Assembly: GCA_032718475.1 (NCBI GenBank)
Contig: JAUCBJ010001884.1
Coordinates: forward strand, 1 to 64,000
Direction of reading: 5' to 3'
Length of the DNA: 64,000 bases
Source of the DNA: Nemertoderma westbladi
Taxonomy: Eukaryota; Animalia; Xenacoelomorpha
The notes under the pieces are model-generated. The model saw only the letters and a list, made by a program, of their open reading frames with translations, did no database searches and was not told the DNA's origin. This document shows positions 35,116 to 62,232 of the stretch, piece after piece; position 1 is the stretch's first letter, and each line of letters starts with the position of its first letter. The translations under genes were made by a program, and so were the position numbers.

Positions 35116-35743
35116 TACTTAAATGCTTATTATACCCAAACGATGAAGGAAGATGGTAAGGTAGGTGGGAAGGTGGGAATCAAACGATGTTTTTACCTTC
35201 CAATTGAAGGAAAAGAGCAGGTTACAGCGGCGGCAATTTCTAACCAAAACAATAAACGATGTTGTTGAAAATTTTCACCCACCGCCGAAAAATACAAGTT
35301 TCAGAATTCTTATGCAATTTTTACATATTCCATTGAATTCAGAACCCTCACAAATCCGTATAACGCAAGAAACCCAATACTGCCATATATTTCCGAAAAA
35401 TACAAGTTTGAGATGTATATACTATATATAGTTGTTAGAAAAATATTCATTCCGTCAAATTCAGAGCCCCTTTAAACCTCTAAAATGTAAGATAGAACTA
35501 TGAGTTGTCACAATCAATTGAACTATTGAATGAATTTTCAAAATTTCTTGCTGGCACCAAATTTTGCACACGGCACCGAAAAATACAACGTTGATGATAT
35601 GCCTGGTGATGAATTATTTCACTATAAGATAGCATTTGTAGTTTAACTTTAACGTAAAAACTTTCGAAAATCCGACGCATTTTGATTAAGTTACAGTAAT
35701 GTAATATGCCTATTCATATTTGTATACATAAAACCCCTAGTTA

Positions 35744-35822
35744 CTCTCGTGGCGTAGTGGTCAGATGGTTAAGGCGTTGGTTACATTACAGATAGGTTAC
35801 GAGTTCGAATCCCGGTCGGGAA
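35744..35822 (+). other. tRNA-like Pol III promoter module (SINE head) inside the LTR U3; second copy at ~57956-58034
   Basis: A box GTGGCGTAGTGGT[cagatggt]TAAGGCG and B box GAGTTCGAATCCC; not a complete tRNA. Confidence 0.65.
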
Positions 35823-35864
35823 ATTTGTATTTTGGGGCCATTTATTTTCATTTGGTACAGATTG

Positions 35865-36010
35865 GTAAGCCAATGAGGTGCGTACAACGTATCGAACGAT
35901 GAGTTGGGCCAATCATAGGGCATGGAATATCTTATTGCTCCAATGTGAGGCCATCGAATACTCTCGAAGGTTCTAGTGGATTCTATGTCCCAGATTTAGT
36001 ATATAAAGGG
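35865..36010 (+). promoter_or_regulatory. LTR Pol II promoter: three CCAAT boxes and a TATATAAA box
   Basis: CCAAT near 35870, 35909 and 35940; TATATAAA at 36000-36007. Confidence 0.6.
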
Positions 36011-38476
36011 CTGGTTTGCCTTCGGTTATCACACACATTTGTACTTCACTACTTCTTACTTACTCTTGTAAACTTGCTGCACTAGTTGCACTAATCATTT
36101 CGTTATACTTTGTTGGTTTCTTGTTGAAACTATTGTAATTCTGTTTGATAAATCTTTTGCTAAACTGTAAATACACTGCAAACTTCTGAACATGTTTTCT
36201 TTTGGTCCAACCTTGGGACAGCCAAACATCGGGAAGATGGCAGCCTAGACCGTTAGGCCGTCAGCAACGCAGGGGAAAGATGTCCACAACACGCTAGCGC
36301 CCACATTGGATTTGACCGCGCACCCCCTTCGCCCTTCGAAATACTCCACTTGCCATGCAGCGCCCGCTTTATGAGGAAGGTAAGACTTTGTTCGACGCCC
36401 TTGCCCGCCGTAAGACCTATAGATCAGGGTAAGCGTGACGCCGTCCTGGACGCCGCAAAATTTAGGATCAAATAATTATATTTAGGCAGAAACCCCCTTT
36501 GTCAGTCCTGCGAACCCCTGGGTTAACCTGTATTTCTCACAGGTGCGAACTATTGCCATTCGTCAGTACGCGAGTACATAGGTACGGACAGCATATGTTC
36601 CATAATTTAGTGATTCGTAGTATTGACTGTTTGGTACCGGTTCGCTTTGTAGAACATACATTAGTACCCCACCCCCCCTGCCTGAAGTTAGTTATTTGAT
36701 CAGGCAAGGAGTATTTCTGCTACCGGCACACCGCTTGGCCTAGGGAGGTTTTATTAATATCCTACCGCGCCTTGCCACGTACTGATAGGTATTGCTGCTA
36801 ACTACCGCGGCAACAAAGTTCTAAAATCAAATTTGTATACCAGATCAGCTAACGTCGGTAGCGATTAACCCCTATTTCTTATCTTACAACCAGAATCTGG
36901 TATTAGTGCCGATCACGGGTGTAGTTACTAACACCGTGGTTGCCCATTGAGTTGTGGATAGGAAGGAGAGAGCTTTGACGTCATTTGTAAGTATAAAGTT
37001 CTACAAACGCGACTAGCTTATTTTAGTAGCTAGCGCATGGTATCATTTCGGTCAGAAAATCACTAAAACCTAGTGAAAAGGTATACACCAAAATTGTTTT
37101 ATTTGTAACACACCCACACACACACGCCCTAAAACATATTTACCCTTAGAGTTCTACTAGTTATAGTGTACTATATATTACTTTAGGCAGAATTTATCTG
37201 TATTTGTAAATTAGGATCTGATATTTAGTTACGGCAATAGGGAGTATTTCATTTTCGTTATTAAACTGTTGTTTTCTGCTCAGCAGTATTGTTACATTAG
37301 GCACGACCCTCTTTCGACTGATTTAGGACTGAATCAGTGTTGTTACGCTAGGTCTGTTAACCCACTAGCTCGTATATAAACCATATAAATCACACCGCGG
37401 CAAGTTACGGTATTTAGGACTGTCAGCGATAGTTAGGATTCGCTGCACGGGGATTGTTTTCCCGTGAGTTTGGTCTGTTACTGTAACTGTACATCTGCCT
37501 CACCGGTTAGAGGACAGGTATCCTTTTGTCTAGTTCGTAGGCATTAGACCCGCTCACGTACATAGAATAGACACTAGGCTCTGTTCCTCGCCAGTAGTAG
37601 TTTGTGTATTGTATCTGTTTGTTTAGATATCCTGGACTCGGATTTGTTGTCAGATACTGTACGAGCCCGTATACATTACTAGATCTTACGGTAAGATACA
37701 TCGTTACTAGGATCCGGTAAGCGGTATACTACTGGACCTTACAGTGAGAAATATTTTCTCTTACGAAAGTAGGAAATATATATCCAACCGTGAGGTTTCT
37801 CACATACTGTTAGCTATTGAAAGTAGGAGATATTTAAAAAATTAAGGTTAGTAAATTTAGTAATTTGAAGAACGTCCCCTGCTTCAGTAGGCTTTTAGGG
37901 TAGCTAGTACTTTCGTATTTAATATTTGACTAGCTAATAGTTAGTTTGTAGCATTTTGTTTTACGCCGTGTGTGTGCGGTGTTACTTTTCGGTACTTGAA
38001 AAGGTACATAGGGTTTAAAGACCAAGTTGTATCGGTACCTAGGAAGAATTTCGTAGCGTAGAAGTAAAACTCTCACCTTCGACTTTTCAGGACTCAAGGA
38101 CTCATTTCTGGACCGCTTCGAGGATTAGACCGCTTTTCGCAAAGTTTGGGAGACAATAAATTCGTCCACGCCGCCGAAAAACGGAACAACCCACGTCCGG
38201 TTTGTATTTGGGAATTTGCACGACTGGAAGATCAAAGGAATGTAAGTTTTACGACTCGTGTCGTTCAAACTTAAGAAAGCACAGTAGTACTCAAAATTTG
38301 TGGGTTTCACTGTCTAATTAGTAGTGTTGTTGGTACTTATTTTCCCGTTAGACATTGCTGTTTTGCCTATTATTTGTACTTGTTGATCTACATTTTGGTA
38401 ACGTATACCGTTATCTCATTTATTCGTACAAATTTAGCCGGTAGGCTAGATTATTACATATTTCATTATATACTTT

Positions 38477-39200
38477 GATTTTATTTGTACCGGTTAGGGT
38501 ATATATATGGTATATATATATATATATATATATACTAAGGTAAGTTTGACATTTCGACATTTTGACATTTCGACATTTTGATACTTTGACATTTTATTAC
38601 CCGTACTTGACATATATAATAAGACATTTTACGCGTTTTACGCGAGTTGACCGCCCCGATGTCGAGATACGAGTTCTACACCTTACAGGTAAGGATAGAA
38701 AGTCGGGTACAACTTTACAAAGGTAAGAATAATCGATAAGTGCGAGGGAAAGCCTCATCCAGTTTAAATCAGTAGTAGGATTGGCTCAACAAGAGCAACT
38801 CGACCAACTGATGGGTGAGTCTGTTTCCGACACGTTGTTACATCCCGAAGAACTATATCGCCTGGACGGAAGGTTAGAAACGCTCACCGATTTTCTTCAT
38901 AGATGTGGCGTACCAATCGAGGAACCGGATGTTGAACCGCAAGGGACGACGGAAGTTCTAGTTATGGAAGGCTTGCGAGCCTACCCTGTTCCACCACTGG
39001 ACCGATCATTCGTCAGCGTACGGAGCGATGCCGGCGACGTTAGTAGAATGACATCGGTGATAACTCGACAACAACAAGAGGTTGCACGCCAACAACAAGT
39101 CGCCGAGGAAGAAGCGCAACAACAGATGGCACAAGTTGCTATTGAGGGAGAGAAACAACGCCGAGAAGATGAGGCGAAAATCGCGAAACTTCAGGCCCAA
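38477..39200 (+). pseudogene. Diverged, internally deleted duplicate of the element's 5'UTR and gag N-terminus
   Basis: ORF 38781-39242 aligns with 39955-40380 (AQQEQ.DQL.GESVSD..RLETLT.FL.RCGVPI); the leader ttatttgtaccggttagggtatata occurs three times. Confidence 0.85.
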
Positions 39201-39424
39201 TCTTTGTTAGTTTTATTTGTACCGGTTAGGGTATATATATGATATATATATATATCAAGGTAAGTTTGATATTTCGACATTTTGACATTTCGACATTCTG
39301 ACTTTGTTGATTTATTTGTACCGGTTAGGGTATATATATACTATATATACCAGGGTAAGTTTGACACTTCAACATTCAGACACTTTGACATTTTATTACC
39401 CGTACTTGACGTATATAATAAGAC

Positions 39425-42400
39425 ATGAGTGACACACCCCATTCGACAAGATACCCACCTACCGACTATGACTCGTGCGACCCGGACAGATCGACAGTAG
39501 ACGAACCGAGAAGGAGAACCCGAGATTCCACCGATGTCACACCGCTTGCGTCGCCGGTACCCCGAACGGAAATACCGGAAGCCGCAATGCGTAGCGACGG
39601 CAGAATCGAAGATTTCCTTACCGTCCTGCAGACTAAATCGCGGGAACCGGACATGGTAAGTTCGACTGGAAGCCAGGAGAACGTTATTAGGAGTATAGGA
39701 GGACACATGGCCCAGATTACTCGGAACCTCAGAGAAGGTTTTCGCGTTTTACGCGAGTTAACCGCCCCGATGTCGAGATACGAGTTCTACACATTACAGG
39801 TAAGGATAGAAAGTAGGGTACATGCCTCCGTAGAAAAACTTAAAGGTTTAGACGAACTTGCAGAGTTGCGTGGCGATAACTTTACTCAGGTAAAGATAAT
39901 AGACAAGTTGGTAAGTGCGAGAGAAAGCCTTATCCAGTTTAAGTCGGTGATAAGATTGGCTCAACAGGAGCAGTTCGACCAACTTCTAGGTGAGTCAGTT
40001 TCGGACGCATTGTTACAACCCGAAGAGGAAGAAGAACTCTACTGCCTGGATGGGAGGTTGGAAACGCTCACCAATTTTCTTCGTAGATGCGGCGTACCGA
40101 TCGACGAACCGGAAGTCGAACCGCGAGGGACGACGGAAGTTCTTACTACGGAAGGCTCGTGAGCCTACCAAATTCCACCAATGGATAGATCGTTCGTTAG
40201 CATGCGGAGTGACATTGGCGATGTTAGTAGGACAGCGTCTGTAATTACTCGACAACAACAGGAGGTTGCACGCCGACAACAAGTCGCCGAGGAAGAAGCG
40301 CAACACCAGATGGCACAGATTGCTATTGAGGGAGAGAAACAACGTAGAGAAGATGAAACGAGAATTGCGCAACTCAAGGCACAAGCCGAAGTCGAAGCCT
40401 CAGAATTGAGAAGATTAGAGGAGGACTTAGCACGACAGAAAGAAGCATCTGACGCGCGTGCTCAGTTGGAGGCACGGCAAATAAAATCACGTTTAGCTAT
40501 ACAGGAAGCGGAGTTAGCGGCACAACAACAAGTAGCGGATCGACGCGAAAGGGAGATGCAACTACAGTTCGAACTGAATCGTAGATCGCGCGAGGCAGCG
40601 AACGCGCAAGCGGACCTTGAACTCGACGCGAGAGATAGATCTATAAGATCGCGAGCTGGACACGACTTGTCTGCCCTGGATCGCATGGAAGCTCGATATC
40701 GCGGAATTCAGAAGCGAATCGAGGAAGGAAGTGTGGGAGCGATAGATCGAGGAGAGGAGTTCGTCGAGGATTACTGTAGACGTTTTCCCCAAGTTATTCC
40801 TATGCTCAAACCCACGACTCCGATAAAACTGGTCTTTGTTACGAAACCTAAGGAAATAATATATGTGCTTTCGACGCAAGGCAACAGGTTTGTTGTGACG
40901 GAAATACCGCAACCTAGGGCGACTTCATCGCCAATTTTAGCAGGTAACATAACTAGTCCACCTACAGTAAGTCATAGTCTACTTGTAGGAAGAGAGGAAC
41001 CTGCGTTTATGACCATTAAACAGGTGAGTAAACCATTACAAGTTAAACCTGTGACGTGCTGTGCGAACCCAGTTATTTATAGATCGACTACGAAACCCGA
41101 CTATTTTACTCAACCCTTGACACAATGTTCGACGCAACCTACGACTTCATGGAAGGCTTGCGAGCCTATCGAACTACGGAGGAGGATGGATATGGGTAGT
41201 ACCCACGGGATCGAACAACGTATAAAGAGACCTATGACTTCGTGGAAGGCTTGCGAGCCTACCGAACAACGGAGAGCCGTAGATCCCAGACCACAACGGA
41301 CGAGACCAAGAATAATACGCCGGACGCGAAACCGCCAGCCACCTTATCCGGACGACAACGACTCATCTAGTGACTCGGAGTCGACGGAACGGGAAATATT
41401 CCGTACTGGAGCGGCGGATGATTACAAACGAGAGGAACGATCGACGAACACCTATATCGATAATCCTCCACGAGAAACACCCCAACAGAAACCCACGTTG
41501 AAACCAGCGGAAACGATCAGCGCCAAACAGTTCACCGAGATGACAGACCGAATAGCTCAACTCGAAGAACGACTCGAAGCGCAACCGTCGGATCGATCAC
41601 GAACCAGCGTGGAGTTGGAACAACCTAGACAACATCGACCACCAAGGAGAGAACAGGAGACTAGACAGACTCCGACCCATCGAGAAGAAGATCCCGTTAA
41701 TAATTCCTACCGACGAACAACGCGCGGAAGGGAGCGACTGGACGACGCCGCCGAACAGGGACGCGGACAGTTGGATTTGGTTAGCGAGATTGCGAAATTC
41801 GCGGCTAGACACGGATTACCGGCACAGCAACCGCCGAAGTTCTCTGGCAACGCGAAACACTGGCGCACACTGGTAGACTATGTAGAGTCCCAGATCGCTA
41901 AGTGTGCTTTCACCTCGACGGAGAAGTTTAATTACTTGCTCTTAGTCCTGTCTGGTGAGCTGAAACGATTAGCGGAAACCTTTATTGGTGTTCCCGATGC
42001 CTTTGAGTTGGCGTACGACCGTTTATATTCGATTTACGGAGGTAACGTCGCCATGGCTAAATCCATTATCGAAGACCTCTGTAGAGGAGGCAGCATTTCG
42101 AAACCGATCGACCTTCTACGACTCGCGGACGAAATCAAAAACGCTATAGGGACTTTACGGTCCATTGGACAACTCGAATACGCTAACGCACCGACGGTTC
42201 TCATCAGGATAATCGGTCGACTTCATCATCGACTCCGACGAGAATGGCGACGCATCGAGTACCAGCGTGAAGAGGCCGGCGGGCTTTTAAAACTCACCGA
42301 CATCTACCAACTGATTTCACGGGAGGCTGTGATCGAGACTCGATCGAACTATACCGATCACCATATCGCGGCGGAAGGGATAGCTATTTCTGCGCCGAAT

Positions 42401-45400
42401 CGGACCAAACCATCTCCGACGAACGCGAAAGCCATTACCTACGCCACCCCTACTGAGACTTCTAAAGTTCTGACGCCTATCGGCACCACGCAGCCACGAC
42501 AACAGTTGCCAGCGGACTTTGTGGGATGCTCATACTGCGAGCGGAATGGCAGAAACCATAGCGGACATAAACTTTGTGGATGTCGTGCTTTTAAGGAGTT
42601 AGGGATTGAAGAAAGAAGACTCCAGATTCGATCATTAGATTCCTGCTGGAGATGTATGAAGCCAGGATACGTCCGGAAGGATTGCCCGAGCGACACATGT
42701 CCTCAGTGTGGACGTAACCATGACGCGTTGCTCCACACAACCAGTCATACTCCAACCAAACGCTTTCGACGAGAGCATCCAGATAAAGCGGCTAGATGCG
42801 ACGCGCTTTATAAGGAGCGTGCGCCGCGCGAGATCCGTACCTTTTGTGCAGATTGTATGGATCAGTCAGGATCATCGGACGAGGAGGAAGACGACACTTT
42901 CTACGTGCATGCAGGTGAGGAACAGCCATCGATAACGCTCCTCACACAGAACCAATTGAAAGGGTTTAGCGTGATTCCTATAAAGATTACCGGAACCCGA
43001 GGGAGCAAGCATATATACGCTATCTTAGACTCTGCGTCATCGCATAGTTATGTCGACGAACAAGTAGCCGACGTGGTTACGGACATGAGTCAAGGTAAGA
43101 CTGCTCAGTATACTGTAAGCAGCATGCATGGTAAGAGAGCGATCCCTGTGACGAGAGTAAAACTAACCTTAGACACTCTTCTTTCCAAAGCGGAACACAG
43201 CAAGGAGGAGCGCTCATTACTTCCGGTAAGAAATTTGACCTTTGCAGCTACGAAGGACTTTGGTAACTTGCTCGGCCCTGTGCCAGAGCAATCACCGGAA
43301 GATCGTAAGTATTTCCGACACCTTGGAATACCGGAATGTCCTGTTAATTATCGTTCCATTGCGATGTTAATTGGGACAGACCAGTTTAACTTACATCAGG
43401 TATGGGAGACACGCCCATCTGTTATTACAGCGGGCAACCCCTACGCATGTAGAACTCCCATAGGTTGGTATACTAGAGCACCAATACGTTCACTAGAGGT
43501 AAGTGACCAGGAGGACGACGTTTTGAGTACGTGTAGTTTATTGACTAACACGATAGATAATTCTCCTTCACACTCCTGTGGTCCAATTGTACGGACGGCA
43601 CTACGACAGACTTGCGTCGCTAACGCAGACGCCACCGATACTGACGTAACTGATCTGGACACGACCACACGGACCTCTGACTTACAACTACTTGCAGCAA
43701 ACCAGGTTGTATTGTCTACTGAAGACCAAAGGGTTGTTGCCGTGGATGACTCGATGAACGAGGATTTTGGAAGGCTTGCGAGCCTACCGAAAAATCCGAA
43801 GGTCATTGACCCCACCCACCAAGCTTCGACACCGGTCGTTGATCTTGGAAGGCTTGCGAGCCTACCGACAGATCAAGAGGTTGTCAAACTGCCACAAGAC
43901 GATTCGACGCCGACTAGTGACGCCGGAAGGCTTGTGAGCCTACCAGACACATTGACACTAGCCACCACAGCGGACGAAGACGTGGACGAGGACCATGGCG
44001 CAGTGCAAGCAGCGCTTGACCGACTGCTGACTGAACGGACCATTCAATGGTTGGAACAGGATTCAGCAGAACCCGGTAGTTACGAGACCGCTATGTCAGA
44101 ACAGGAAAAACGGTCATTAAATATTATGAGAGATACCATTCGCCAGACCGCGAATGGCCACTATGAGGTTGGTATGTTGTGGCGCAATGGACAACCTAAA
44201 CTCGTTAACAATTACCCGCTTGCTTTGAGGCGACTCAAATCAATAAGGCAGCGATTGTTGCGAGACGAGACGGCCCATATGCAATACAATGCACAACTTC
44301 AGACGTATCTCCAAAAGGGATACACCATTAGGATGTTAAATCCCGAGGTAACCTTAGACCAGACATATTACCTGCCACATCATTTTGTTCGACACCCGGA
44401 CAAACCTGGCAAGGTGCGTGTAGTCAACGACTGTGCCGCGCTTTACCAAGGGATATCTATGAACAGGGAATTGATGGACGGGCCGAATATGAACAATTAC
44501 CTCATGGGAGTCCTAATGCGTTTTAGACAACGCAAAGTGGCTTTCACCTGTGACGTAGAGGCCATGTTTCACCAGGTTAAGGCTTTGGAGCGGGACAGGG
44601 ACAGCTTGAGGTTTCTTTGGTATCTGGACGGAAACTTACAACTTCCGCCAGAAACTTACCAAATGCAGGTAAGAGTATTCGGAGCCAGGGACAGCCCCAA
44701 CTGCACCATGTATGCATTAAAGCAGATCGCATTGGACAGACGAGACCAATTTGATCCAGAAGTAGTTCGGACCGTGGAACGAGATTTCTACGTGGATGAC
44801 GGCCTCAAGAGTTCTGACACCTTGGAGCGCGCTACAACCGTAGCACACCAACTCCAAGATTGTCTCGCTGAGGGCGGATTTCACCTGACGAAGTTCGCTT
44901 CCAACGAACCCGAACTGGTGAACTCATTTGACCCGATGGATCGCAGTGGAGGTGATTTAGACTTAGACCTAGAACCTCTGCCGACGACCAAAGTATTAGG
45001 ACTTAGTTGGGACCCTAACACCGACAATTTTAGGGTACGTGTAAGGTCCAACGACCAGACTAGACCTCTCACTAAGAGGACTTGCTTATCGACCATGAGT
45101 CGATTGTATGACCCATTGTGTTTCATTAGTCCAGTGATCCTACATGCTAGGATCATACTCCGCAGCATTTGGCAAGCCGGACTGGAATGGGACGATCCCA
45201 TCCCAGAAAAGTTAGCTGAGCGATGGAGGGACTGGGAAGCCCAACTGACGTTCCTACAAGACTATACCATACCGAGGGTATACTTTCCTTTGCAAACCAC
45301 CTTTCCTGCTGATTTAGAGCTTCACAGCTTTAGTGACGCTAGCAAGGATGGATTGGGGGTTACTTTATACCTTAGACGACAAGTGACATCGGACAGCTAC

Positions 45401-48211
45401 GATGTGTCTCTCGTTACTTCAAAGGCTAGAACAATGCCATTGAAGTATATGACTGTACCTCGTGGAGAGCTGCAAGCCGGGACGATATCCACCGATATTG
45501 TCAGTCTAGTTCAACGCGAGCTGGAGGCTAACTTGAAGGTCACATATTGGACGGATGCGACGTTGGTACTTTGGTACATAAACAATGAAGCGTTTGAATT
45601 CAAGACTTTTGTAGCCAACAGACGGGCTGAAATACTAGACCGGTCGCTCAAACAAGATTGGCGTCACTGTCCAGGGAAGCTGAACCCAGCTGACATCGTG
45701 TCGCGGGGGATGCAACCGCTTGACTTTTGTAAACCGGACAATAAATCCTTTTGGTTTAGAGGACCCGATTTCCTACAGCGACCATCAGACGAATGGCCAC
45801 CGTTATTCGACTAGACAACCAACACCATACCAGAGGGTGCCGAGATAAAAATCGACAAGGTTGTCAAGTCCAAAGCGAAAGCCAACGCCAAGGTCAAGAG
45901 GAAACAAGGACGGACGAAATCTGATGACCTGGACGCCAGACCTGACATTACGCCAGACGTCTCACCAGACATTCGACCAGACGCTTGTACGAATCCTTCG
46001 CCGGATGTTCCGCGGGAGATTTCACCAGACGTTTCGCCGGATTGTTCACCAGATTACTCGCCAGACTATTCACCAGAAGTGACACCAGATTGTTCTCCGG
46101 ATTATTCGCCAGATTGTTTTATGGAACTCTCGACAGAATGTCTACCGGACGTCTCACCAGACTTTCCACCAGACATCTCGACAGACTGTCCACCAGACTT
46201 TGGACCAGACTTTCTGACAGAAGTTACGCCAGACAGACTTTGGGACCGACGACAGGACATTTCGCCAGACGTTCCGCGCTATGTCTCACCAGACGCCTCA
46301 CCAGACTGTTCACCGGACGCTTCACCAGACTGTCTACTAGACACTCCACTAAAAGACCCATTGGAGCGGACTTTTAGAGACTTACCGAATTTGACTTCTT
46401 TGGACGACAAAGGTGTGGCCACAGCGATCACACTCCGCTCAAAGAAAGTACTTGACTTACCACCTACAGGTAAACGTGTGACTAAGGTTAGGAAGCTTAC
46501 AGGCTCACAGGAACACACTGATACTGTAGAGTTGAAACCGTTACTGTCAGTCGACACATTAGGTGCGGACGGTAAAGGTAAGACCGTAAAGGTTGACGTA
46601 CTTGGGGACTCAGACAAACCTACCGGAAGGCCCGTGGGCCTACCAAGTCCAGACAAGTATCCACACTACGACTACACCTTACCTGATGACATCACTAACA
46701 CTTACATTGACCGGATAGTGAACCTAACTAGATCATGGACTGACGCATGCCGCAAGTTAGCATGGCTCAAACGTTTGAGACAATATGCCAGAGGCGAACG
46801 CGACTTTCCTAGAAGACTTACCTTAAAGGAAGTTGGCCACTGTGAAGTTGATATCATTCGACATTATCAATTGCGATATTTCGCACGAGAGTTCACAGCG
46901 ATCAACCAAGGTAAACAGATTAAGTCTTCACCGATTTTGAGTTGGAGTCCGATTATTTACCAGGGCTTACTTTGTCACAAGTCCAGACTCCAAAACATCG
47001 ACTTTGCACTTGACTTCAGGTATCCTATCATCATACCGCAACACCATGAATTACAGCGCGCTATGATACTGGACGCACATGTACAACTCAAACACGTGGG
47101 TAGACACCACTGTCTATCACACTTACGCTCGAGGTTTGTACTGATTAGACCTAGTAAGGCACTGAGTTCGGTAACACGGAACTGTATGATTTGTAAGAAG
47201 GTGCACGCGAGGATAGGACACCAGGAAATGAGTGAACTAGCATTAGCTAGACTACAGGCGTTTAGACCCCCTTTCACTGAGACAGGGATAGACTGTTTTG
47301 GACCCATAATCGTGAAACGCGGAAGGGTACAGGTAAAACGTTGGGGATTGATCTTCACTTGCATGGCCAGCAGAGCTGTCCATATTGAGCGTGTGACAGA
47401 TTTAACCACCAATGCCTTTATCCTAGCCTTACGGCGATTTATCGCTAGACGTGGATTGGTCAAATCCATTTACTGCGACCAAGGGACAAACTTTGTGGGT
47501 GCACGGAACGAGATAACCAGAGCTTTGAGAAAGTTGGACCAAAACCAGATTTCCGAGGAACTACATCCTCACCGTATTGTTTGGAATTTCAACACTCCAG
47601 ACAGTCCGTGGAGAGGCGGCGTTTGGGAAAGGCTGATTGGCTCAATAAAGACAGCTATGGCTAAAGTGATACCGACGCAACACATAATGACAGACGACCA
47701 ACTGACAACGTTACTAATAGAAATCGAAGCGATCTTAAACACTAGACCGATCGCTTTGATCCCAGACAATAACGACGCACAGTTTGCCTTGACACCAGCG
47801 CACCTGCTTATGCAGGCGCCGACGACATTGTTGCCCATTTCGGTACCCGTTGATAGTGACAGATACGGCAACAAGGCTTGGAAAATCACTCAACTACTTG
47901 CAAATAAATTCTGGGAAATATGGCAGAAATATTATTTGCCCTCTATTTCGACCAGAACCTCTTGGTATCTAAATACCCGATGTTTGAGACGTGGTGACCA
48001 TGTTTTATTGGCTGAAGCTAATCTGAAAAGACGGTTTTGGCTGACTGGAGTCATTTTGACCACACACCCTACATCTGGTGTAGTGAGGACAGTTACTGTA
48101 AGGACCATCGACGGGCGTACCGTAGATAGGCCTGTACAACGTCTCGTACTCCTTGAGGAAACTAGAAACGAGACAGGAGACTACAAATCTCCACCCAATA
48201 TTAGTAAATAG
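39425..48211 (+). pseudogene. BEL/Pao gag-pol polyprotein (2929 codons) with two premature stops (TGA 40160-40162, TAG 45812-45814) and no frameshift
   Basis: ORFs 39425, 40181 and 46079 share one frame. Gag PKFSGNAKHW; knuckles CSYC..H.LCGC, CWRC and CPQCGRNHDALLH; protease AILDSAS; RT YYLPHH, KVRVVNDC, DVEAMFHQV, FYVDD; RNaseH FSDAS..PRGEL..YWTD..NPAD; integrase GIDCFGP, CDQGTNFVG, GGVWERLI. Confidence 0.95.
45940..46350 (+). repeat. Degenerate 12-bp coding repeat (..CCAGAC..) encoding (S/T/P)PD(x) tetrapeptides between RNase H and integrase
   Basis: TPDCSPDYSPDC..SPDASPDCSPDASPD in frame with pol. Confidence 0.85.
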
Positions 48212-50202
48212 ATGTGGGACCTTTGATGGCCGCCACATAGCTTTACCGTATTTTAGCAATTTAGTATTTTGTATTACTGTATGTGCATTTGTAATCCTCT
48301 TCACTGTAGATAGAGACAGCGGTGGAATTCCATTGTCTTTATATGTGAACATGGAGGGTAGTACCCTTATGTATCACATAGGAGCGGGATTGTGTGTACA
48401 GTAGGAATGGAATTCCACTTGGAACCCACAAGTGAGACAATTTTTCAAAAATTATTAGACAAATCCATTTATTTGGATTTAAATTTAAGAAAAACGATTC
48501 TCCAGTGAATGCAAATTCTAGAATACAGCTAGATAAAAATTAAAATTGGGGAGGACAAGAGCGGATGGAAGGCTTGCGAGCCTACCGATAAATTTTTTTG
48601 GAAAAAGAAAACTGGCCTTGTTCTACGTAGTCGTGTCTACTATTATTTAGACCAATTAATTCTCGACTGCACTATTTTCTTTTGGGAACGTAGTGGGGAA
48701 ATTAAAAGGTGAGTATTTTAGACTCGCGGCTAGTTTACCCGGAATTCGTTTTTTATCGGCACAATATTTTTGGATTAGGAGCCAGTGCGAAATCACACGA
48801 ACCCGAAGTCATTAGGCAAATGGGTTGGGGTTTAGAGCAGAGTTGAGCCAAAAGCCGACAAACTCTAAGTCACCTCACATCTAACCTCTATTTTGTGCTT
48901 CATCTAGTAGAATCGTAACGATATGTAACCATATATATTCGTATACGATGGCGGAGAAGATGTATAAGGAGTTACGTCAAGGGTTTACGCAAGAACAAGA
49001 GCACCAGGCGCCATTTAATCGTTATGGAGCTAAAAACTTTAGTGTGTTTGGAGTGGAGAGTATGGCTAGGAGTACAGCCAAGCTCGCTAAATCCAAGGCG
49101 GACCCGAATGTTACGCGACAGCGGTTGGACGCATATAACAAAAGAATGGAGGAATTACACGCGGAGTTCAATGCGTTATATTCCTACGATGCGTTATGCG
49201 ACGCTAGCGACATTTGCGAGGATCCAGACACTAAGATACGCCGATTGTATCATACGCTGCAATACTTGACGGTAAATGAACCCTTACCTGCAGCTAGAGA
49301 CGAATTCGAAGGAATGCATCTTTATAGACGCGCTCGAGGAGCGGATCCAGAGACCAAGGACGCGTTCTCCATATACAAACTGTTTTATAAATGTGGAGCG
49401 TGTATGCGTGAGCAAGACAACGCGATTCCTATGCGGTTGAACTCGGAGAACCCCGAGCCGATATTAGCGCGATGTTCACACCACCAAAGTCTATGTTACT
49501 AAGAAGGCGGATACCCTTTGACAAATCCGTATCATTCGTTTAAAATGAGTGGACCGAACGCGGGTGAAATTGTTATTTACGAACCCAAATTAGTCGAACC
49601 AGACGTCTACAGAATGGTAGTGGACGAGTCTAATAAGTCGACACAAGAGAAACGGGAAGCTTTGAGCCTCTACAGGGCGTACAAGGCGTACGAGAAAGGC
49701 GAGATCGAGGAGTTCGGTGGAAGGCTCGCGAGCCTACCATTCTATTGGATATCCCACGATCAAACCGAACCCAAGGAGATGACACCCGAGCTCTTCGATA
49801 GTATCACCTTTGCTCAGCGTTTGTCGCAGAGACTACAGATACCTCATGTCGAGATGACGCGAGAACCTCAGCCCCATTCTACTGGAGCGATAGTACCGGT
49901 TGCGAGACCTGGTATGTCAGGCTGTCCGGTACATAGCCAGACATCTGTAGCCTGTAGGCTGAGGTAAAAGTGGATGCTGGAGCGACACAACCGGTCAGTA
50001 TAATATAATATAAGCAGAATGCAAGCAAGATATGTAGGCCCGTGCCATAGACAGTAAGGGGGAATAATGAAATAGGCCTATACTGTATATATCCATACCA
50101 ACTCCCCCTTTAGGCGATTTTGTCAGATCAAAATTGTTTACAGTGAACCCCATACACCATATTATAGTTTAAAAATAATAAATGACTATTCTAGTGTAAT
50201 AA

Positions 50203-53200
50203 TTAATTTTTATAGTCTCCAAATCGAACGGTAGGTTTTGTTACACGAGTGCTGCGGCGTATTACGCTCTTACTTTCAGTTTCCAACTCCGGTGTTGGAA
50301 CTGTTTTCTGTTGGGTTGGGTTCGGTGGTGTTTCGAGTTCAATGACCTCGTGGTAGCGACGGAGAAAACGTCTGTTTCGCCACCATGTACGACCTGAAGG
50401 TAGTTTAACGTGGTAGTCTCGTCGTTTTCCGGCCCCAACTATAATACCGACACGATCCCAACGTTTAGATCTGGAGTCTTGGAGGCGAACTTTTGTGCCT
50501 ATTAGGAATGGTTTGAGGTTCCGCGCCGTTGAATTGTAGTGTTTGACGGCTTTCTCGCGAATAAATTCGTGTCGTGCGTCAGCTGTCTCGGCTGACTGCT
50601 GCCACTTCGGGTCAAATGAAGTGTGATGGGCTGGTACACGCGATCGCAGGTTGCGCCCAAAAACGATCTGGCTTGGTGAGCGACCATCCGCGTGTGGTGT
50701 GTTCCGTACCTCGAGTAAACCTTCGAGGAATTCCTCAGAATTTATGTCTGAGGTTGTCGTTTTTGCCAATAGACCTTTAATGAGTTTTACGTGGCATTCC
50801 GCATGCCCGTTACTGGACGGAAAATGCGGCGTACTAGGCGCCCATTCGACCCCCCAACGTTGCAGGAATTTCCTAAAGTTGGATGCGGCGAATTGAGGTC
50901 CTCCATCGCTTCGAAGTTTGGTTGGAACGCCTAAGTCGACGAAACATTTCCGTAACACGCTGACGATTTGTTGTGATGTTGTTTATTCCCGGCCAGTAGA
51001 CTGCGGACCGCGCTCTTTGTTTCGTCCGCGTCATACCCTGGTGGGCAGCGTGTAGGCGTTCTAGAATTTCGGCTCGTTTCGCACTAGGTATAACCAGGCG
51101 TGGACCATATAATACCAGGCCGTTATCTACGGAGAGTTCGTTATGTATGGATTTAAATTGCTGGACGAATCCGGAGGTGTGGTTTTCAGTTGTGAATCCG
51201 CTTAGGATTTCAGTAACTAATTGCTGATAGGCCTTATCGTTTAAGGCTACCTTCCGGATTTCCTCGATAACGGGGTCTGTTGTAGGTGGTTCTAGAACGT
51301 TTTTAGGATCTAAGTCCCGAGTATTAGTTAATGCTATCCGTATAGCTGCTATGGTTCTTGTGACATCGTCATCTTCCTTTAATAATTCATCAGTGGTATC
51401 GGGGTCATCCACTGGAGCTCGGCTGAGACAGTCTGCAATTTTATTGTCTTTACCTTTTTGCCACACTAATTCAAATTGATATTTCGATTGCAGCTGAGCT
51501 TTAATTCGCTGGAGTTTTGTATTATCGACTTGATCCAGGGTTTGTTTATTGAAGATTGAAAGTAAAGGCCGATGGTCAGTCATAACTTTAAAACTTTCTA
51601 ATCCAGCTAAATATAGGTGGCATTTACTCATTGCATATTTTATAGCAATGGCTTCCAATTCTATTGTGGCATACCGGGTTTCGGCGTCCGATATAAATCG
51701 GCTTCCACAGGCAATGAGCTTCCATTTATTATTATTATTTTGCAGTAAATCGAAGCCAAATCCGTGCAATCGACTGGCGTCTACTTCTAACCGTGTTTCA
51801 GCGTGCGGATCGAAGGGTACCAGGATTGGAGGTTTTAGAAGTGCGTATTTAACAGCCTCGAATGCATTATCATGCATTATTTCCCATGTAAAATGGTTGC
51901 GAGTTCGTAGTAACTCGCGCAACGGAGTCGCTGCAGCGCTGACTTCCGAGGAAAAGCAACCGAGTTGGTTAACGAGTCCCATAAAACTTCTGAGTTCACT
52001 TATGTTAGTTGGTTTGGGAAACTCGGAGATTGCCTTTACTTTGTTGGGGTCTGCCTCGATGCCGTTGTGTGAAACGATATATCCTGCGAACTTTACTCGT
52101 TCTTGAGCGAAGTTGAACTTTTCAGGATGGAGGGTGATGCCAAAATCCCGACAGCGTTGTAGAACCGAACGAACGCGTTCAACGTGAGTGTCAAACTCGA
52201 CATCCTCGATGAGTAGGTCGTCTACGATTTTATTTATGTTGGCCATACCCTCAAAAGCCATGTCTCCCCTATAATTATATGAGTCCCCGGTGGATATGAA
52301 GCCCATCGGGGCCCGGCAGTACCGGAACCGGCCCCACGGCGTTAAGAAGGTAGTGAGGTCTCGCGATTCTTCCGCCAACTCGACTTGCCAATAACCAGAC
52401 TTAGCGTCAATTTTTGTGAAATAACGCGCGTCTGGTGTGCGGTCTGAGACAACGTCGAAAGGAGTTTTGGCATTGTGTATAGTTCGTTTCACCTGATTAT
52501 TTAATTTGGTAAGGTCAACCGTGATACGAATTTCATCCGGTCGACCGGGTTTGGGGCAAACAACCATGGGATGACACCAATCTGTGGCCCGGTCACCCAC
52601 CCGTTCAATGATGCCTTTGTCCAACATGTCGTTGAGTTCGGCGTGGGCTTTATCTCTGTAGGCGTAGGGTATAGAGCGGGTGGCGTAGATGCACAAAGGT
52701 TTTGCACCTTCCTTGACTTCTATAGTCATAGGGGGACCCAGCATCGGTTTAAGTTGGCCTTTGATGGCAAAGACGTCACTAAACTCTTCCAGAAGTTTTT
52801 GTTTTATTTTGTCTACGAGTTCAGCATCTATGTTAATAGGTGCAACCACTTTATTTTCCTTCACTAAATGGAGTGGTGTGGGGAATTCGTCGTGGACGAT
52901 GTTGAAGGCTTTACAAGCTGTAAAGGAAAGATAAATATCTTTAATTCCGTCACAAATATAAACCCATTCGTTGTAACGCATGTTTTCAATCTGTAGAGTT
53001 AGTTTTAAACGTCCTATACATTTTATTGGATTGCTGTTTATTGCTTCCAGTGGCTCGTCTAATTCTCTAAGTTTATTTATAGATATACCGAGGCGATTTA
53101 GAATACCGATTCCGCCAGCGGTGACGTCTGCGCCGGTGTCTGCAATGCAAGCGCTTGTTGTTAGCAGTTTCCCCGTACCGGTATGCACGAATTGTACGGA

Positions 53201-54514
53201 GATGCGAGGTTTACCGGCCTCCCGGGCTAGTTCGCGTGGTTCGACGCCAATTTTCGCGAGGGAAATCGCACCGGAAGTTGTCTTCTTTGGTTGGCGACAT
53301 AGATGGGTGAAGTGGCCGATACGTTCGCATTTTTTGCATTCGCGGCCGATGGCTTTACACGGTTTATCTTTCTCGTGAGGCCAAACTCCACCACATTTCC
53401 AGCAGCGATTATTGTCTCGTATTTGTGGATGGGGTTTGAATTGTCGACCTTTACTGGAGCTCCGTTGGCTATCTGACTTACTAAAATTACGCCCTCGGTT
53501 CTGAGGTTTAACTGCGTTAACTTTGTATGTCAGTCGTTGATCTTCCCGAACAGCCAGCTCCCGATTACGGCAAAAATCGACAGTTTCATCGCGGGATAGG
53601 GCAGGCCTTTTACCCAAAAGTTCCTGACGTACCTCCTCATCCCGTATACCGCAAACTATTAAAGTGGAGATCCAGTCCTCCTTTGTCATAACTTCGATGT
53701 TTGCGTCATCCACCAGTTCGCACAACTGAATGTAGTAATCGTCGAACGACTGTTTTTCTTCCTGTTTAGTCCGTACCAGTTTGTAACGGTCTACAGTTAT
53801 ATTCTGTTGTGCGCGGAGGTGTTCCCGTATTTTTACGAGGATTTCGTCCGTTGACAGTCGGGTATCTTGAGGAATTTTGACAGCATAATGCATCCGGTTT
53901 AGGAAATCAGGGCTGCAGTATGAAAAGAACGTTGCCACCTGATCTTCCATAGGTTTGCTGTCGAGTTTTGTCACCCGGGCATAATTGCGCCATGTTGTCT
54001 CCCACCGTTTAAATGTTTTGTAGGAAACGTCATCCTCGATAATGTTTGGCGGGTGTACAGTGAGTTTGGTTGCCTCGCGGTCTTGGGGACGTCTGGAGCT
54101 TCCGTGCGTTGCCGATCCCGGGCCCGCAGCTGCTATTACGTCGCGCTCTTCCCGCAATCCCTCAAGTAAACGCTGTTGGTTTTGATCGACGAGGTAGAGG
54201 AGTTGTCTGTGCTCTTCCGCCCGTTCTCGTCGTTCAACCCGCTGTTCTTCCATTCGTTTAGCATCCTGGTCGACAAAGTGCGCGAGGAGTTTAGCTAAAT
54301 CGGAACCTCCGACTTCTCCGGTTTGTTCAGGTTCTGATTCTGCTCCTTCTACGAACTTTAGCAACCGTTTTCTAAGAACCGTTGTTGCCGTTCTGTCGCT
54401 GTACTTAATTCCGGCATTTGCGAGGTGTGCTTTAATAGTTGCCCGGTCAAGGTGTTCTATCGAAGCTGGATCAATTTCCCACGTTTCATCCTGGGTTGGG
54501 AGTTCGTCCATCAC
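50203..54514 (-). pseudogene. Gypsy gag-pol with an internal deletion and frameshift in integrase near 50980
   Basis: Knuckles CWKCGG..H..C and CKKCERIGHF.HLC; protease IADTGAD; RT IDAKSGYWQ and IVDD; RNaseH VDAS..YATIELE..TDHRPL; integrase jumps from VYWPGIN to the region before SDGGPQF..SNGHAE. Confidence 0.92.
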
Positions 54515-54681
54515 GCAAATTAAATATGTTTTTTTAATATATGAAATTTCAAATTATTACCGGTAATTATTAAGCAAGCATAGTCAGAACGTGCAGAAGT
54601 GCAGTCGATCGATGATCGATCGGTGATATTGCAGTGCAGTTTATTGCGTAAGTTCAAGCGCAGCGCGGTACTGGTACTGCG

Positions 54682-54698
54682 CCTATCTCACTGCGCCA
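54682..54698 (-). promoter_or_regulatory. Gypsy primer-binding site, tRNA-Ser-like (TGGCGCAGTGAGATAGG)
   Basis: Abuts the 5' LTR; complementary to the ..CUCRCUGCGCCA 3' end typical of tRNA-Ser(UGA). Confidence 0.7.
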
Positions 54699-55329
54699 TG
54701 GTATGTCCGGCTGTCCGGTACATAGCCAGACATCTGTAGCCTGTAGGCTGAGGTAAAAGTGGATGCTGGAGCGACACAACCGGTCAGTATAATATAATAT
54801 AAGCAGAATGCAAGCAAGATATGTAGGCCCGTGCCATAGACAGTAAGGGGGAATAATGAAATAGGCCTATACTGTATATATCCATACCAAGACCAACTAG
54901 TTTTCCTATTAGTATACCGACCCGGAAGGAGACAACTTACGAGATCCCTATAGTTGAACACCCGGAGATCATTTCGAACCTGGACTTCCTCCCATCGGTT
55001 ACCTTTGGTGATGTGTTAGAGTCAGCCGAGTTGCGTAAAGTAATAGTTCAAAAAATCGTACGCAACGTGCCTCCACATATTACGGACTTTAAGGAAGTGG
55101 ATCGCGCGGGGACGGATATCGCACCTTGTATCTTGCGAGGATATCTGACGAGAACGATTCGATTATGGATCGGAGTTGGAACGTTTGAGACCGACACCGA
55201 TATCACGACCAATTGGACCGGTAAACCTATTAGTTTCGATGATGAAAAGTCGATTGGGAGAATTTGGAACCCTACCGACGATTTACTCGACGATTGGGAC
55301 GTGACTAGCCGATCTCTAAAGGAGAATGG

Positions 55330-55950
55330 TTATATGTTTTACGATGATGAAGGAGGAAGCCATCAGCAAAGCCTCACTTCGAAGACTATACAGATTAGAG
55401 CACCAGATGGCGTGTTACATGTCTTCAGCCGACAGAGGAGTGATAGAAAGATGCCTATGCCGGAAGGAACGACGCAAAGACACGCGATGATAAAACGGAT
55501 AGTTAAATCCATGGACCTGGCTTGTAGCATAGAAGCTAGGATATTACCAAAGGCCGTGCGAGACGTTGTGTTGGACAAGAGCATCGTCAAGATCGGATCC
55601 GGTGTACGGGATGACCTTATTAGCGACTTTGCAGGGATGCCCACGGAAGAGGACCGATTGCCTACGCCATACGTGGATACTAGACCATTGTTGCTTTGGG
55701 CTATCGAGCAAGGATATTTTAGGGAGTATAACACGCTAAAAACTGGGACGGGTTATATCTCATATCTAATGTTCAGTTGGGATTACAAGGAGAGTAAGAG
55801 GAGCAAATACACGGATGTATACGGAGAGGGAGATACCCCCGGCGTAAACGAGTTCGAGTCACAGTTGAAGTGGCGAGGTTGCGTGTATTGGGCGATTACT
55901 TCACCTCCGCGAATAATCTTGCAATACTATTTAGCGATAGAATCTTCGGT
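55330..55950 (+). CDS. DnaQ/DEDDy 3'-5' exonuclease domain (WRN-exo/EXD2/MUT-7-like) within BEL ORF2
   Basis: ExoI YMFYDDEG followed by TIQIRAPDGVLHVF; ExoII LPKAVRDVVLDKSIVKIGSGVRDDL; YVDTRPL; GTGYISYLMF; ExoIII-like ILQYYLAIE. Confidence 0.72.
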
Positions 55951-57818
55951 TAACGTTTGTTTCATCGCGGATGTAGTATCCAGAACCCTAAAGCGACACC
56001 CGTTATGTCTCGGCGAAGGACATACCTTTTACGATGGAGGAAGGACGCATACTGATGTATTCCGACGATTTCTCCAACCCTTTTATAACACCGATGCGCA
56101 CTGCGAAGTTTTCACGTGAGCGGGACTTAGCGTTTTCAGGGACGTCTATCTCACTCACGCGGGAAGTCTAGTCGACAGACCGTCGATGTTAACGTTAGTA
56201 CCCTACGACGGGGAACGCCACGCGGAATTCGAACGCCCGGAAGGATCCTGGAAGGCTCGCGAGCCTACCGCCCATCACGACAATGTGGATCCGACCGAGT
56301 TGGCGCTAATAGACGAACCGTTGCGGCAACTCATAGAGATAGAGGAGAACCTTCCGAGGAAGACGCGAACTGAGATACGCGAGTTGGAGAAAAGCGATGC
56401 CATGGTTTGTGTACAACCTACGGAGACGAACATACCGACTGACCCGGATGATGAGAATTATCACGTGGACGGTAGCGCTCGCCGGTAGACGGTGCACCCC
56501 GACAACAAGAATACTTGGAACTTTCAAACTGTGGTGAACAAGATTACCGCCGGAGAATTCGATAAACTGCGAGTTGAACAGCGGAATCGAGGAGCCTGGC
56601 ATTCGATAGCTTGGGCATACCGGAGCGCATTTTATCACAAACGCGTAACCTCGTGTATTCTGGACGAGACCGACGTTTTGCGTGAGACTGGCTTCAAGGC
56701 CACGTCGTTAGCAGAGAAGACGCGTCACCCACAGGATGATCAGCAATTTCGTATACTCAAAGCCCAGAAGGCCGGACAAGAGATAAAGAAGATAGTAAAT
56801 GTCGCCGAGAGGACGACATCGAAGTCGCAAATCCGGATGACTCGGGGCACGGTTTCCCTCGCTAGAGAACCACGCGGAGGGACGGGATACGCTTTGCCGG
56901 AACCCATTAGGATTCAAACGACGTCAGAGAGCGAGGTGTCAGCGGACGGAACAGTCCCACCCTTTCGACTTCCTCATAGCGTTGTGGAGACTCGATCCGA
57001 TGTTAAGCCGACAGTTGGAATCGGACGAGGATTTAGAGGATTGAGCGCACGACGGATGTGCGAAACTCCCGTCGTCCCCTTTCCTAGCGTTTTGGAACCA
57101 CCGACAACTCGACGCCGAAGTCCGAGCCCAGTTCGACCTCGACCACCACCCAATCGCAATAGAGGACGTGGACGAGCCCGCTCAGCAAAGGAATAGGAAA
57201 GCGAGAAGAAGGAAGGCTTGCGAGCCTATATTTATATTCGGATATTATATTTCGACACTATATTTGGGTATTTATATCGGACATTATATTTGAATGTTGG
57301 GTTTGGAAGAACAAGATATGGAAAGGAAGGCTTGCGAGCCTACCGTTAGCAATTAGTGCTCAGGAGAAGATATCCAGACCAGCAGGACGAACTTTCATAT
57401 CGTCAAAGGGACACTTTAAGACTTATTTGGAAGTTATTAGCGCTTTATGTTTATTTTATATTTGAACTGATTTAATTTGGTGGAAGTTTATTATGTATAT
57501 TTACAATATATAAAGATTTATTGAAAGAAGTTACAATTATTTGTTCGATTTGTTTTGATTTATTTGTTCTGATTTGTTTAATTTGTTTATCTTGATAACC
57601 GAAAGCATTTTGTATTTTAGGCACTAAAGTTAATTGGTAAATTTGTATTTGTATGTACGATCGATTGTATTTACGCCGTATCTGCAATATTAAGTATGCA
57701 ATAATTAGATAGTGATTATTTTATATTTTAGGTCCCACCAGTAGATTTAGAAGTAGTTTGTAAATATTTTGTATTTCGATTGGTGAAAACAGTCTTACTT
57801 ACTGTTTTCATGGAGCGG

Positions 57819-60465: not shown

Positions 60466-60779
60466 CCTGGTGCAATTCATATATATTCCAACGAGACTAG
60501 AACGCCTAAAACCCCTATTGCGGAAAAAAAAGGCTTCAAATAATCAATTTACAAAATTGAAATATTTCAAAATTTGGGGCTGGCACCAAAATTTGGCACC
60601 CGCCGCTAAAAACAAGATTAAAATTTCTAGCTTAGGCCTATTTTATATGAATTCCTTTTAGTTATTTTCAGTTAGTCTTTTAGTTAGTAGCGTTAGTTTC
60701 AGAGAGGGGGGGGGTGGGGGGTAGAGTTATATTGACTGACATGGGCAGAATCCCCAGCTGCCCAGTACTCATTTAGCTA

Positions 60780-62104: not shown

Positions 62105-62232
62105 CCTACTGGTAATACAGTAATAAATACCGAGTACAGGAGTACCTTAATCTACAATCTCATAATACAGTAATAATATATATATATTATATTGGCCTAA
62201 AGTGTATGATCTTGATCTATGATAGTTTAGAA

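Follow-up and report, generated by a model that had tools for sequence, protein, structure and literature searches.

A 20-nt self-complementary hairpin repeated through a BEL/Pao retrotransposon of Nemertoderma westbladi: a candidate multivalent RNA dimerisation and packaging signal

A 20-nt hairpin motif occurs 13 times within one BEL/Pao retrotransposon in the 64-kb stretch of DNA analysed here (the window), and is tentatively interpreted as a multivalent signal for dimerisation, compaction and packaging of the element RNA, with a probability of roughly 0.45. A signal acting at the RNA level had been proposed for this motif and is supported as the likeliest kind, as are nucleotide-level constraint, strand specificity and restriction to the element in the window.

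The host element is a multi-copy element of approximately 20 kb with an internal sequence of approximately 15 kb. It possesses LTRs of the TG...CA form, a 5-bp target-site duplication (TSD) and a single gag-pol with Pao-type domains in which the integrase is last, as in BEL/Pao elements. The polyprotein yielded 1,270 matches at E<=1e-50, with a top identity of 40-44%. The 3' LTR is 97-99.7% identical to the 5' LTR and carries an additional block of approximately 0.5 kb. In-frame stops, at 40160-40162 and at 45812-45814, disrupt gag-pol in the copy analysed here. The area of the gag duplicate at 38628..39200 is skipped in the contigs of other family copies (joints 38472-39307 and 38616-39464), and the empty site of the nested Gypsy element is likewise present in other family copies. 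The features are as follows.

35607..37743, + strand: BEL/Pao 5' LTR, TG...CA, with the TSD CCTGG in front (35602-35606); motif-free
38628..39200, + strand: incomplete second copy of the 5' part of gag, 80-95% identity to 39739-40384
38966..38985, + strand: motif copy 1, inside the duplicated gag segment; paralogous to copy 2
39425..48211, + strand: gag-pol, with DUF1759, Peptidase_A17, integrase zinc finger and DUF5641
40150..40169, + strand: motif copy 2, gag N-terminal region
41151..41263, + strand: motif copies 3 and 4 (starts 41151, 41244), gag, 93-nt tandem unit
43769..43944, + strand: motif copies 5-7 (starts 43769, 43847, 43925), protease-RT interval, 78-nt tandem units
46625..46644, + strand: motif copy 8, RNase H-integrase linker; compensatory C-G pair
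48567..48586, + strand: motif copy 9, non-coding, gap between pol and ORF2
48881..48907, + strand: candidate splice acceptor upstream of ORF2 (branch-point, pyrimidine tract, AG), predicted from sequence
48948..57196, + strand: ORF2, approximately 1,090 codons, interrupted by the Gypsy insertion; in-frame stops at 49500, 56117 and 56486
49719..49738, + strand: motif copy 10, 5' part of ORF2; CGCG loop
49910..54890, - strand: nested Gypsy element, 192-nt LTRs, TSD AGACC; motif-free
56250..56269, + strand: motif copy 11, ORF2, 3' of the exonuclease-like domain; CGCG loop
57211..57344, + strand: motif copies 12 and 13 (starts 57211, 57325), 3' untranslated region, 114 nt apart
57819..60465, + strand: 3' LTR of the BEL/Pao element, followed by CCTGG (60466-60470); motif-free

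All 13 starts given in the original prediction were exact. Searches at <=3-5 mismatches yielded 13 matches on the + strand, and those on the - strand were the same 13 sites read backwards, in agreement with the claim of a sense-only motif; approximately 0.008 matches per 64 kb are expected by chance under a uniform model. The statement that the LTRs, the nested Gypsy and the sequence outside the element are free of the motif held throughout the 64-kb window. An unfiltered covariance-model scan of the window yielded no 14th copy, the 13 copies scoring 31-37.5 bits and the next independent match 11.2 bits (E=2). Ten of the 13 copies lie within reading frames and, as had been claimed, all three frames are used (phase 0, n=5; phase 1, n=3; phase 2, n=2) in addition to non-coding sequence (n=3); the copies fall outside conserved protein domains. 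The count of 13 requires correction to approximately eight independent sites, because the groups 38966/40150, 41151/41244, 43769/43847/43925 and 57211/57325 represent duplicated or tandem units, those of the last pair being only weakly alike. The number of tandem units differs between family copies at 43769..43944 and at 57211..57344. The copies are located 1.2-14.6 kb into the internal region, with none in the first 1.2 kb past the LTR, and the eight clusters are fairly evenly spaced over approximately 13 kb at intervals of roughly 1-2.8 kb (CV 0.43, p=0.015). Orientation is sense in 13/13 copies and in 8/8 independent clusters (p=0.008).

Conservation at the nucleotide level, also claimed originally, was borne out by variation among family copies and by comparison of duplicated units. 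Between 43725 and 43975, where 3/13 motif copies could be assessed family-wide from unphased contigs, 2/60 motif positions varied at >=2% among family copies vs 29/191 flanking positions (p=0.013). For third codon positions the corresponding figures were 0/18 and 10/46 (p=0.05). Read depth over the motif is inflated, so that variant shares may be diluted. Inside duplicated units, identity was 94/100 (94%) in the motif core vs 169/290 (58%) in the flanks. Fourteen of the 20 motif positions are invariant among the 13 copies, including the unpaired A·A.

The loops comprise UGCG (n=8), CGCG (n=2), CGUG (n=2) and UGUG (n=1), and the loop-closing pair is U-A in 12/13 copies. The stable cUNCGg tetraloop combines a UNCG loop with a C-G closing pair, and depends on that pair. 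The earlier placement of the loops in the stable UNCG/YNMG class was not supported, because the closing pair is U-A in all but one copy: C-G closure is absent from all eight UGCG copies, and the sole C-G-closed copy carries a CGUG loop, so that none of the 13 has the cUNCGg form. The compensatory change reported at 46625 is real (U-A to C-G). Among the 13 copies, covariation was limited to 1/7 pairs and was not significant, being reached in 77/500 shuffles. Every loop variant is of the form YGYG, in which pairing is retained via G·U, and the 13 copies are free of G-to-A changes. Methyl-CpG decay is a doubtful origin of the loop variants, given the absence of CpG depletion from the element (observed/expected 0.98-1.37). 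Extended stems were rejected as a general feature, since 0/13 copies exceeded shuffled flanks at p<0.05; longer lower stems are carried only by the copies at 43769 and 43847. The lower stems of these two copies (5 and 6) show double changes at four pairs in unphased data, which were not taken as support because two of them make the tandem unit resemble its neighbour and cross-mapping may explain them. Comparison with Rfam yielded four weak matches (E 0.16-4.9), each far under the gathering score.

The loop is self-complementary once G·U pairs are counted, a feature missed by the original prediction, and the copies are therefore predicted to pair with one another. The predicted homodimer is a 14-bp duplex with A·A mismatches on both sides, at -30.7 kcal/mol for UGCG and -34.9 kcal/mol for CGCG vs -15.2 kcal/mol for two hairpins; random-loop hairpins also gain by duplexing (median -20.2 vs -15.2). 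The UGCG site read on the - strand gave a predicted duplex of only -22.9 kcal/mol. Among the 256 possible loops, of which 36 are self-complementary by chance, the two most frequent intact loops come 16th and 4th in duplex stability. Co-folding of neighbouring copies under equilibrium conditions, ignoring co-transcriptional trapping of hairpins, returned a copy-to-copy pairing probability of 1.0 for the pairs 93 nt and 114 nt apart. The motif copies may also all share one ancestor copy. A self-complementary apical hairpin able to form an extended duplex was thus found in silico, and the predicted layout corresponds to a retroviral dimer-initiation hairpin and not to the cUNCGg tetraloop.

Under the dimerisation reading, each copy would fold as a short hairpin whose YGCG loop could pair with the loop of another copy by G-C and G·U pairs, and this contact would then grow into the 14-bp duplex bounded by A·A mismatches. 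Gag or nucleocapsid may chaperone the switch from hairpin to duplex. The RNA would be stapled at many points, both internally and to its partner genome, and an oversized RNA might thereby be condensed and selected for packaging. A larger number of sites would give an element copy an advantage in cis, which would account for the motif having been duplicated repeatedly. Because ORF2 and the 3' untranslated region hold four of the motif copies, a putative spliced ORF2 mRNA would carry them and genomic RNA would be poorly discriminated.

The near-invariance of the motif, A·A mismatch included, together with covariation in 1/7 pairs, points to a protein that reads the sequence additionally to, or instead of, base-pairing; copies obliged to pair mutually would likewise need to remain alike. 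A possible, if somewhat unlikely, explanation is that ORF2 or a host factor binds each hairpin to export, localise or shield element RNAs in the manner of Egalitarian or Rev-type systems. This is compatible with dimerisation, the selected function being protein contact and not RNA-RNA pairing, and it would accommodate a motif present in the ORF2 exon as well as in the intron predicted upstream of it; the self-complementary loop is left unexplained. ORF2 displays an ordered set of DEDD-exonuclease-like motifs at approximately 55337-55942, an order found in 3/20,000 shuffles and 0/120 polyproteins using a post hoc pattern that was widened after its first version missed both positive controls. 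It also has an arginine-rich C-terminal tail (R at 10 of the final 40 residues), and Atlas points weakly to PF01612 (score 0.78). Searches of Pfam, NCBIfam, PHROGs, PDB and the protein collections returned no significant match to ORF2, and a profile of 27 bacterial exonuclease domains did not pick it up. Structure models were poor (pLDDT 32 and 51) with no Foldseek match at E<=0.001, and the second is circular because its alignment consists of bacterial exonucleases. P0122 was rejected as a homologue (E=4e-4), the match being 40 residues in a repeat protein. From these motifs, a DEDD-type exonuclease is only a lead for ORF2.

The RNA-binding modules of Egalitarian include an exonuclease-homology domain, and the protein recognises paired stem-loops, two being required and one example lying in the I factor; the signals described there form long, kinked stems whose sequence is poorly conserved (PMC13186709), vs the short invariant 20-mer found here. 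The long kinked stem with 3' bulges is not a property of the motif, such lower stems occurring only at 43769 and 43847. Bdelloid LTR elements carry DEDDy ORFs, and ORF3 of Juno and Vesta is, like ORF2, an accessory ORF after pol; its likely DEDD-type exonuclease domain would be a further likeness to ORF2 (PMC5408684). No hairpin partner is named for it in the main text of that report, where 'hairpin' and 'stem-loop' occur 0 times, and ORF2 differs in its approximately 1,090 codons, its BEL context and the lack of a detected homologue.

The motif could alternatively be a quasi-palindromic dsDNA site for a dimer encoded by the element or the host, for example in VANC-like anti-silencing, which is considered quite unlikely. 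Its high invariance and sharp 20-nt edges would fit a DNA-binding protein, and an additional element-encoded protein together with a family-specific motif amassed by tandem repeats, here differing in unit number between family copies, is the pattern described for VANC and VANDAL (PMC5735166). VANDAL, however, is a DNA transposon, and its motifs as described are non-coding dsDNA sites of 8-9 nt (PMC5735166), whereas the motif here is a structured sense-strand 20-mer with 10/13 copies in reading frames and LTRs that are motif-free. Accumulation by tandem repeats is therefore shared, and the short non-coding DNA motif is not. Furthermore, 8/8 clusters have one orientation despite a near-symmetric site, the motif changes, read on the sense strand, are compatible with G·U pairing, both half-sites are hit by the double change at 46625 although the stem is preserved, and the element lacks CpG depletion.

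Nine of the 13 copies lie within duplicated or tandem units, as would be seen if template switching had carried an RT-stalling hairpin into tolerant linkers and conversion had homogenised the copies, without any function. Template switching would preserve orientation, and the flanks are slightly closer in sequence to the motif than randomly chosen sites (p=0.008, post hoc). This by-product reading is already disfavoured and judged improbable: the motif is far less variable than neighbouring synonymous and linker positions, both across the family and within duplicated units, the A·A mismatch is uncorrected in 13/13 copies, and no comparable dispersed repeat occurs in the window's remaining BEL and Gypsy sequences. 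A tRNA-primer-like role for TGG plus motif was weighed and dropped.

Colonisation of the element by a REP-like or s2m-like micro-mobile element would suit a sharply delimited 20-nt unit that turns up in every frame and in unrelated surroundings, and whose reverse strand starts with GTAG followed by a hairpin, reminiscent of bacterial REPs, but is very improbable, since within the 64-kb window the motif has a single orientation, is absent from the 39-kb flank, the LTRs and the Gypsy, and shows neither a consistent target-site duplication around its copies nor any other insertion signature, and since matches elsewhere were isolated singles, in metagenomes (n=4) and prokaryote genomes (n=2, with approximately 4 expected by chance). 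Viral contigs gave 0 matches to the exact YGCG form, and no second copy was found in the six loci at <=4 mismatches. Peptides encoded by the motif were present in 0/120 BEL polyproteins, which at 40-44% identity are too distant to test the family of this element.

The dimerisation reading has its closest parallels among retroviruses, in which palindromic hairpin loops initiate dimerisation; HIV-1 SL1, ALV L3 and MuLV SL-A to SL-D share the self-complementary apical hairpin that passes from kissing loop to extended duplex, and gamma-retroviruses possess several such elements (PMC5874298). As described there, these signals are one or a few different elements in the 5' leader, unlike the single 20-mer repeated 13 times over 13 kb, mostly in coding linkers. 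Dimerisation of Ty1 (PMC5454406) and Ty3 (PMC11381356) RNA is likewise started by such hairpin loops, and the Ty1 kissing loops and Ty3 PAL6 resemble the motif as short complementary or palindromic hairpin sequences in the RNA of LTR retrotransposons, some overlapping gag. They are reported as single 5' sites of 6-7 nt, unlike the BEL motif, and long dispersed repeats do not feature in those accounts (PMC5454406, PMC11381356). The occurrence of multiple stem-loops dispersed along the sense RNA is shared with packaging signals of ssRNA viruses, where many cooperative stem-loops act along the genome and spacing is important; the viral signals vary around a short coat-protein motif (PMC6281560), whereas the BEL copies are self-complementary, near-identical over 20 nt and multiplied by duplication. 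In the literature found, the cis-acting RNA signals of BEL/Pao elements are all but uncharacterised. The dimer and packaging signals known from LTR elements are at the 5' end, and a dispersed, tandem-multiplied 20-mer departs from that arrangement.

Packaging capacity has been named as a limit on retrotransposon size (PMC6431247). If the dimerisation reading is true, a long motif repeated through coding linkers, selected and variable in number would represent another solution to size, multivalent RNA stapling. A wider reading, that one self-complementary 20-mer in all frames, as a self-amplifying RNA code private to this BEL family, cross-links an oversized genome at many points while the exonuclease-like ORF2 reads the hairpins or duplexes, would make the system an RNA-level counterpart of VANC never described in LTR retrotransposons, and is regarded as unlikely. 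Should ORF2 read the motif, this would be the first function for the exonuclease-like accessory ORFs of retrotransposons. The motif offers a testable handle on these questions in the form of a native 20-nt oligonucleotide and natural copy-number variants.

A sequence search of the window confirmed each of the 13 previously noted starts of the 20-nt self-complementary hairpin motif (copies 1 to 13: 38966, 40150, 41151, 41244, 43769, 43847, 43925, 46625, 48567, 49719, 56250, 57211 and 57325), against a chance expectation of ~0.008 matches. No further copy was found anywhere in the window, as originally observed for the LTRs, the Gypsy and the sequence outside the element, nor did any appear at 3 to 5 mismatches. 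Minus-strand matches were the identical 13 sites in reverse reading. An unfiltered covariance-model scan scored the copies at 31-37.5 bits and the rest of the window at ≤11.2 bits, and 14 of the 20 motif columns were without any change. The window's other BEL fragment, Gypsy and LTR yielded no comparable dispersed repeat.

Features of the window
4274-6859, minus strand: host gene, OATP transporter
7700-13900: long higher-order tandem array, 41-nt base unit
18227-19363, plus strand: host gene, WD40 protein
28623-32855, minus strand: another, unrelated BEL gag-protease fragment (DUF1759); contains an alanine-rich repeat and lacks the hairpin motif
35607-60465: BEL/Pao element carrying the motif, TG...CA LTRs (2.1 and 2.6 kb), target-site duplication CCTGG
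62116-64000, plus strand: host gene, long acidic low-complexity ORF without Pfam match

The gag-pol domains of the element are of BEL/Pao type, its nearest relatives sharing 40-44% identity across RT-RNase H. ORF2, the second reading frame, is split by a Gypsy insertion (duplication AGACC), and the empty site is present in contigs from other family copies. Excluding the Gypsy, the element spans ~20 kb (15 kb internal), with five in-frame stops in this copy. The family is large and variable; 18,483 contigs of one sequencing run aligned to 38400-57900, with summed depth (which is not copy number) of ~8,000-72,000 on the BEL part versus 105-153 on the Gypsy.

No TGG-type tRNA primer site lies directly 3' of the 5' LTR (37744-37753). 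These first 10 nt are complementary to 36531-36540 within the 5' LTR, which we take to be reminiscent of Tf1-type self-priming; the 3' LTR has an extra block in place of the latter site. A ~0.5 kb block unique to the 3' LTR (58724-59232), with palindromic CTACGCGTAG arrays, is possibly a small inserted element. In pol, a tandem array of 12-nt units (45932-46353, RNase H-integrase interval) encodes P-D repeats. Three related blocks just 5' of gag (38500-39400) combine a TA-tract, a splice-donor-like GGTAAG and (TTTGACAT)n, and are candidate donors for an ORF2 mRNA.

Copies 1/2, 3/4, 5/6/7 and 12/13 are members of duplicated or tandem units (mutual likeness being weak for 12/13), leaving approximately eight independent sites. 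All eight are in sense orientation (p=0.008), bearing out the original observation. With the Gypsy excised they lie 1.0-2.8 kb apart, fairly regularly (CV 0.43, p=0.015), to which domain layout could contribute. Contig joints indicate that unit number at 43769-43925 and 57211-57325 differs among family copies, being fewer or more. Ten copies fall inside reading frames (5, 3 and 2 copies in phases 0, 1 and 2) and three outside, as had been claimed.

Conservation at the nucleotide level was upheld, the motif varying less than its flanks in both duplicated units and family copies. Core identity in five pairs of duplicated units was 94/100 versus 169/290 in aligned flanks. Family-copy variation, measured at 43725-43975 and so covering 3 of 13 copies (four runs, at most three samples, cut-off ≥2%, contigs unphased, depth over the motif inflated), comprised 31 variable places, 2/60 in the motif versus 29/191 in the flanks (p=0.013; p=0.0006 with edges trimmed post hoc to 43755-43945). 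Of the two changes within the motif, one occurs solely in the window's genomic copy and the other yields a G·U pair. For third codon positions the counts were 0/18 versus 10/46 (p=0.05). The motif is real and selected; its constraint is sense-strand, family-internal and nucleotide-level, and it has spread by duplication.

The motif was found in no viral contig, matched no Rfam family and gave only isolated, chance-level matches in metagenomes and prokaryote genomes; its encoded peptides occurred in 0/120 BEL polyproteins, all distant. The literature found held no dispersed repeated hairpin in the coding region of a BEL or other LTR element (subscription papers and Repbase reports lying mostly outside the search) and no paper with the literal sequence, a null that is not proof of novelty.

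A single motif is predicted to fold at -7.6 kcal/mol. The claimed hairpin with a compensatory change held in that the fold is predicted and one of seven pairs covaries, but covariation across the 13 copies was not significant. Longer stems were confined to copies 5 and 6 and were not significant against shuffled sequence. The claimed stable UNCG tetraloop is not supported: U-A closes the loop in 12/13 copies, placing it outside the stable cUNCGg class, in which a C-G pair closes the loop.

Overlooked originally, the loop is self-complementary once G·U is counted. The predicted two-copy duplex has 14 contiguous pairs, then GG/CC past A·A mismatches, at -30.7 (UGCG) or -34.9 (CGCG). Two separate hairpins together give -15.2, and the UGCG site read on the antisense strand gets no lower than -22.9. 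Among 256 loops UGCG ranks 16th and CGCG 4th in duplex stability, and the median with a random loop is -20.2, meaning that the gain is partly generic. Predicted co-folding of neighbours gave mutual pairing probability 1.0 for the 93-nt and 114-nt copy pairs, and pairing partners shared among copies 5/6/7. All these hairpin and duplex values are equilibrium predictions.

Our tentative reading, with a probability of about 0.45, is that of a stapling signal: nucleocapsid would assist copy-to-copy stapling of the element RNA, which would dimerise and compact an oversized RNA for packaging. Packaging capacity is described as a retrotransposon size limit (PMC6431247).

That the motif is instead read by a protein, or is a general RNA tag, is rather unlikely. 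Near-invariance including the unpaired A·A suggests that a protein reads the motif too, and a general tag would better fit the copies in the predicted spliced ORF2 mRNA. A predicted splice acceptor (48881-48907) precedes ORF2, whose tail is arginine-rich; ORF2 yielded no homologue and no significant match in family and structure databases. It is a candidate exonuclease from sequence: the Atlas points weakly to PF01612 (0.78), D-x-E and a 'KIG' block align with bacterial exonuclease domains, and a post hoc motif-order test gave 3/20,000 shuffles, an identity unconfirmed by profile searches and folding. Described parallels are Egalitarian (PMC13186709) and the DEDDy ORF3 of bdelloid Juno/Vesta LTR elements (PMC5408684).

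The remaining explanations fit less well. A DNA site like that of VANC, the VANDAL anti-silencing protein (PMC5735166), is improbable, a template-switch by-product somewhat more so, and a micro-element very improbable.

A stapling signal would work like retroviral dimer-initiation hairpins (PMC5874298), Ty1 kissing loops (PMC5454406), Ty3 PAL6 (PMC11381356) and the dispersed packaging signals of ssRNA viruses (PMC6281560). In position the motif is unlike the dimer-initiation and packaging signals of retroviruses and LTR elements, which lie at the 5' end, and it would therefore represent a variant form rather than a standard member.
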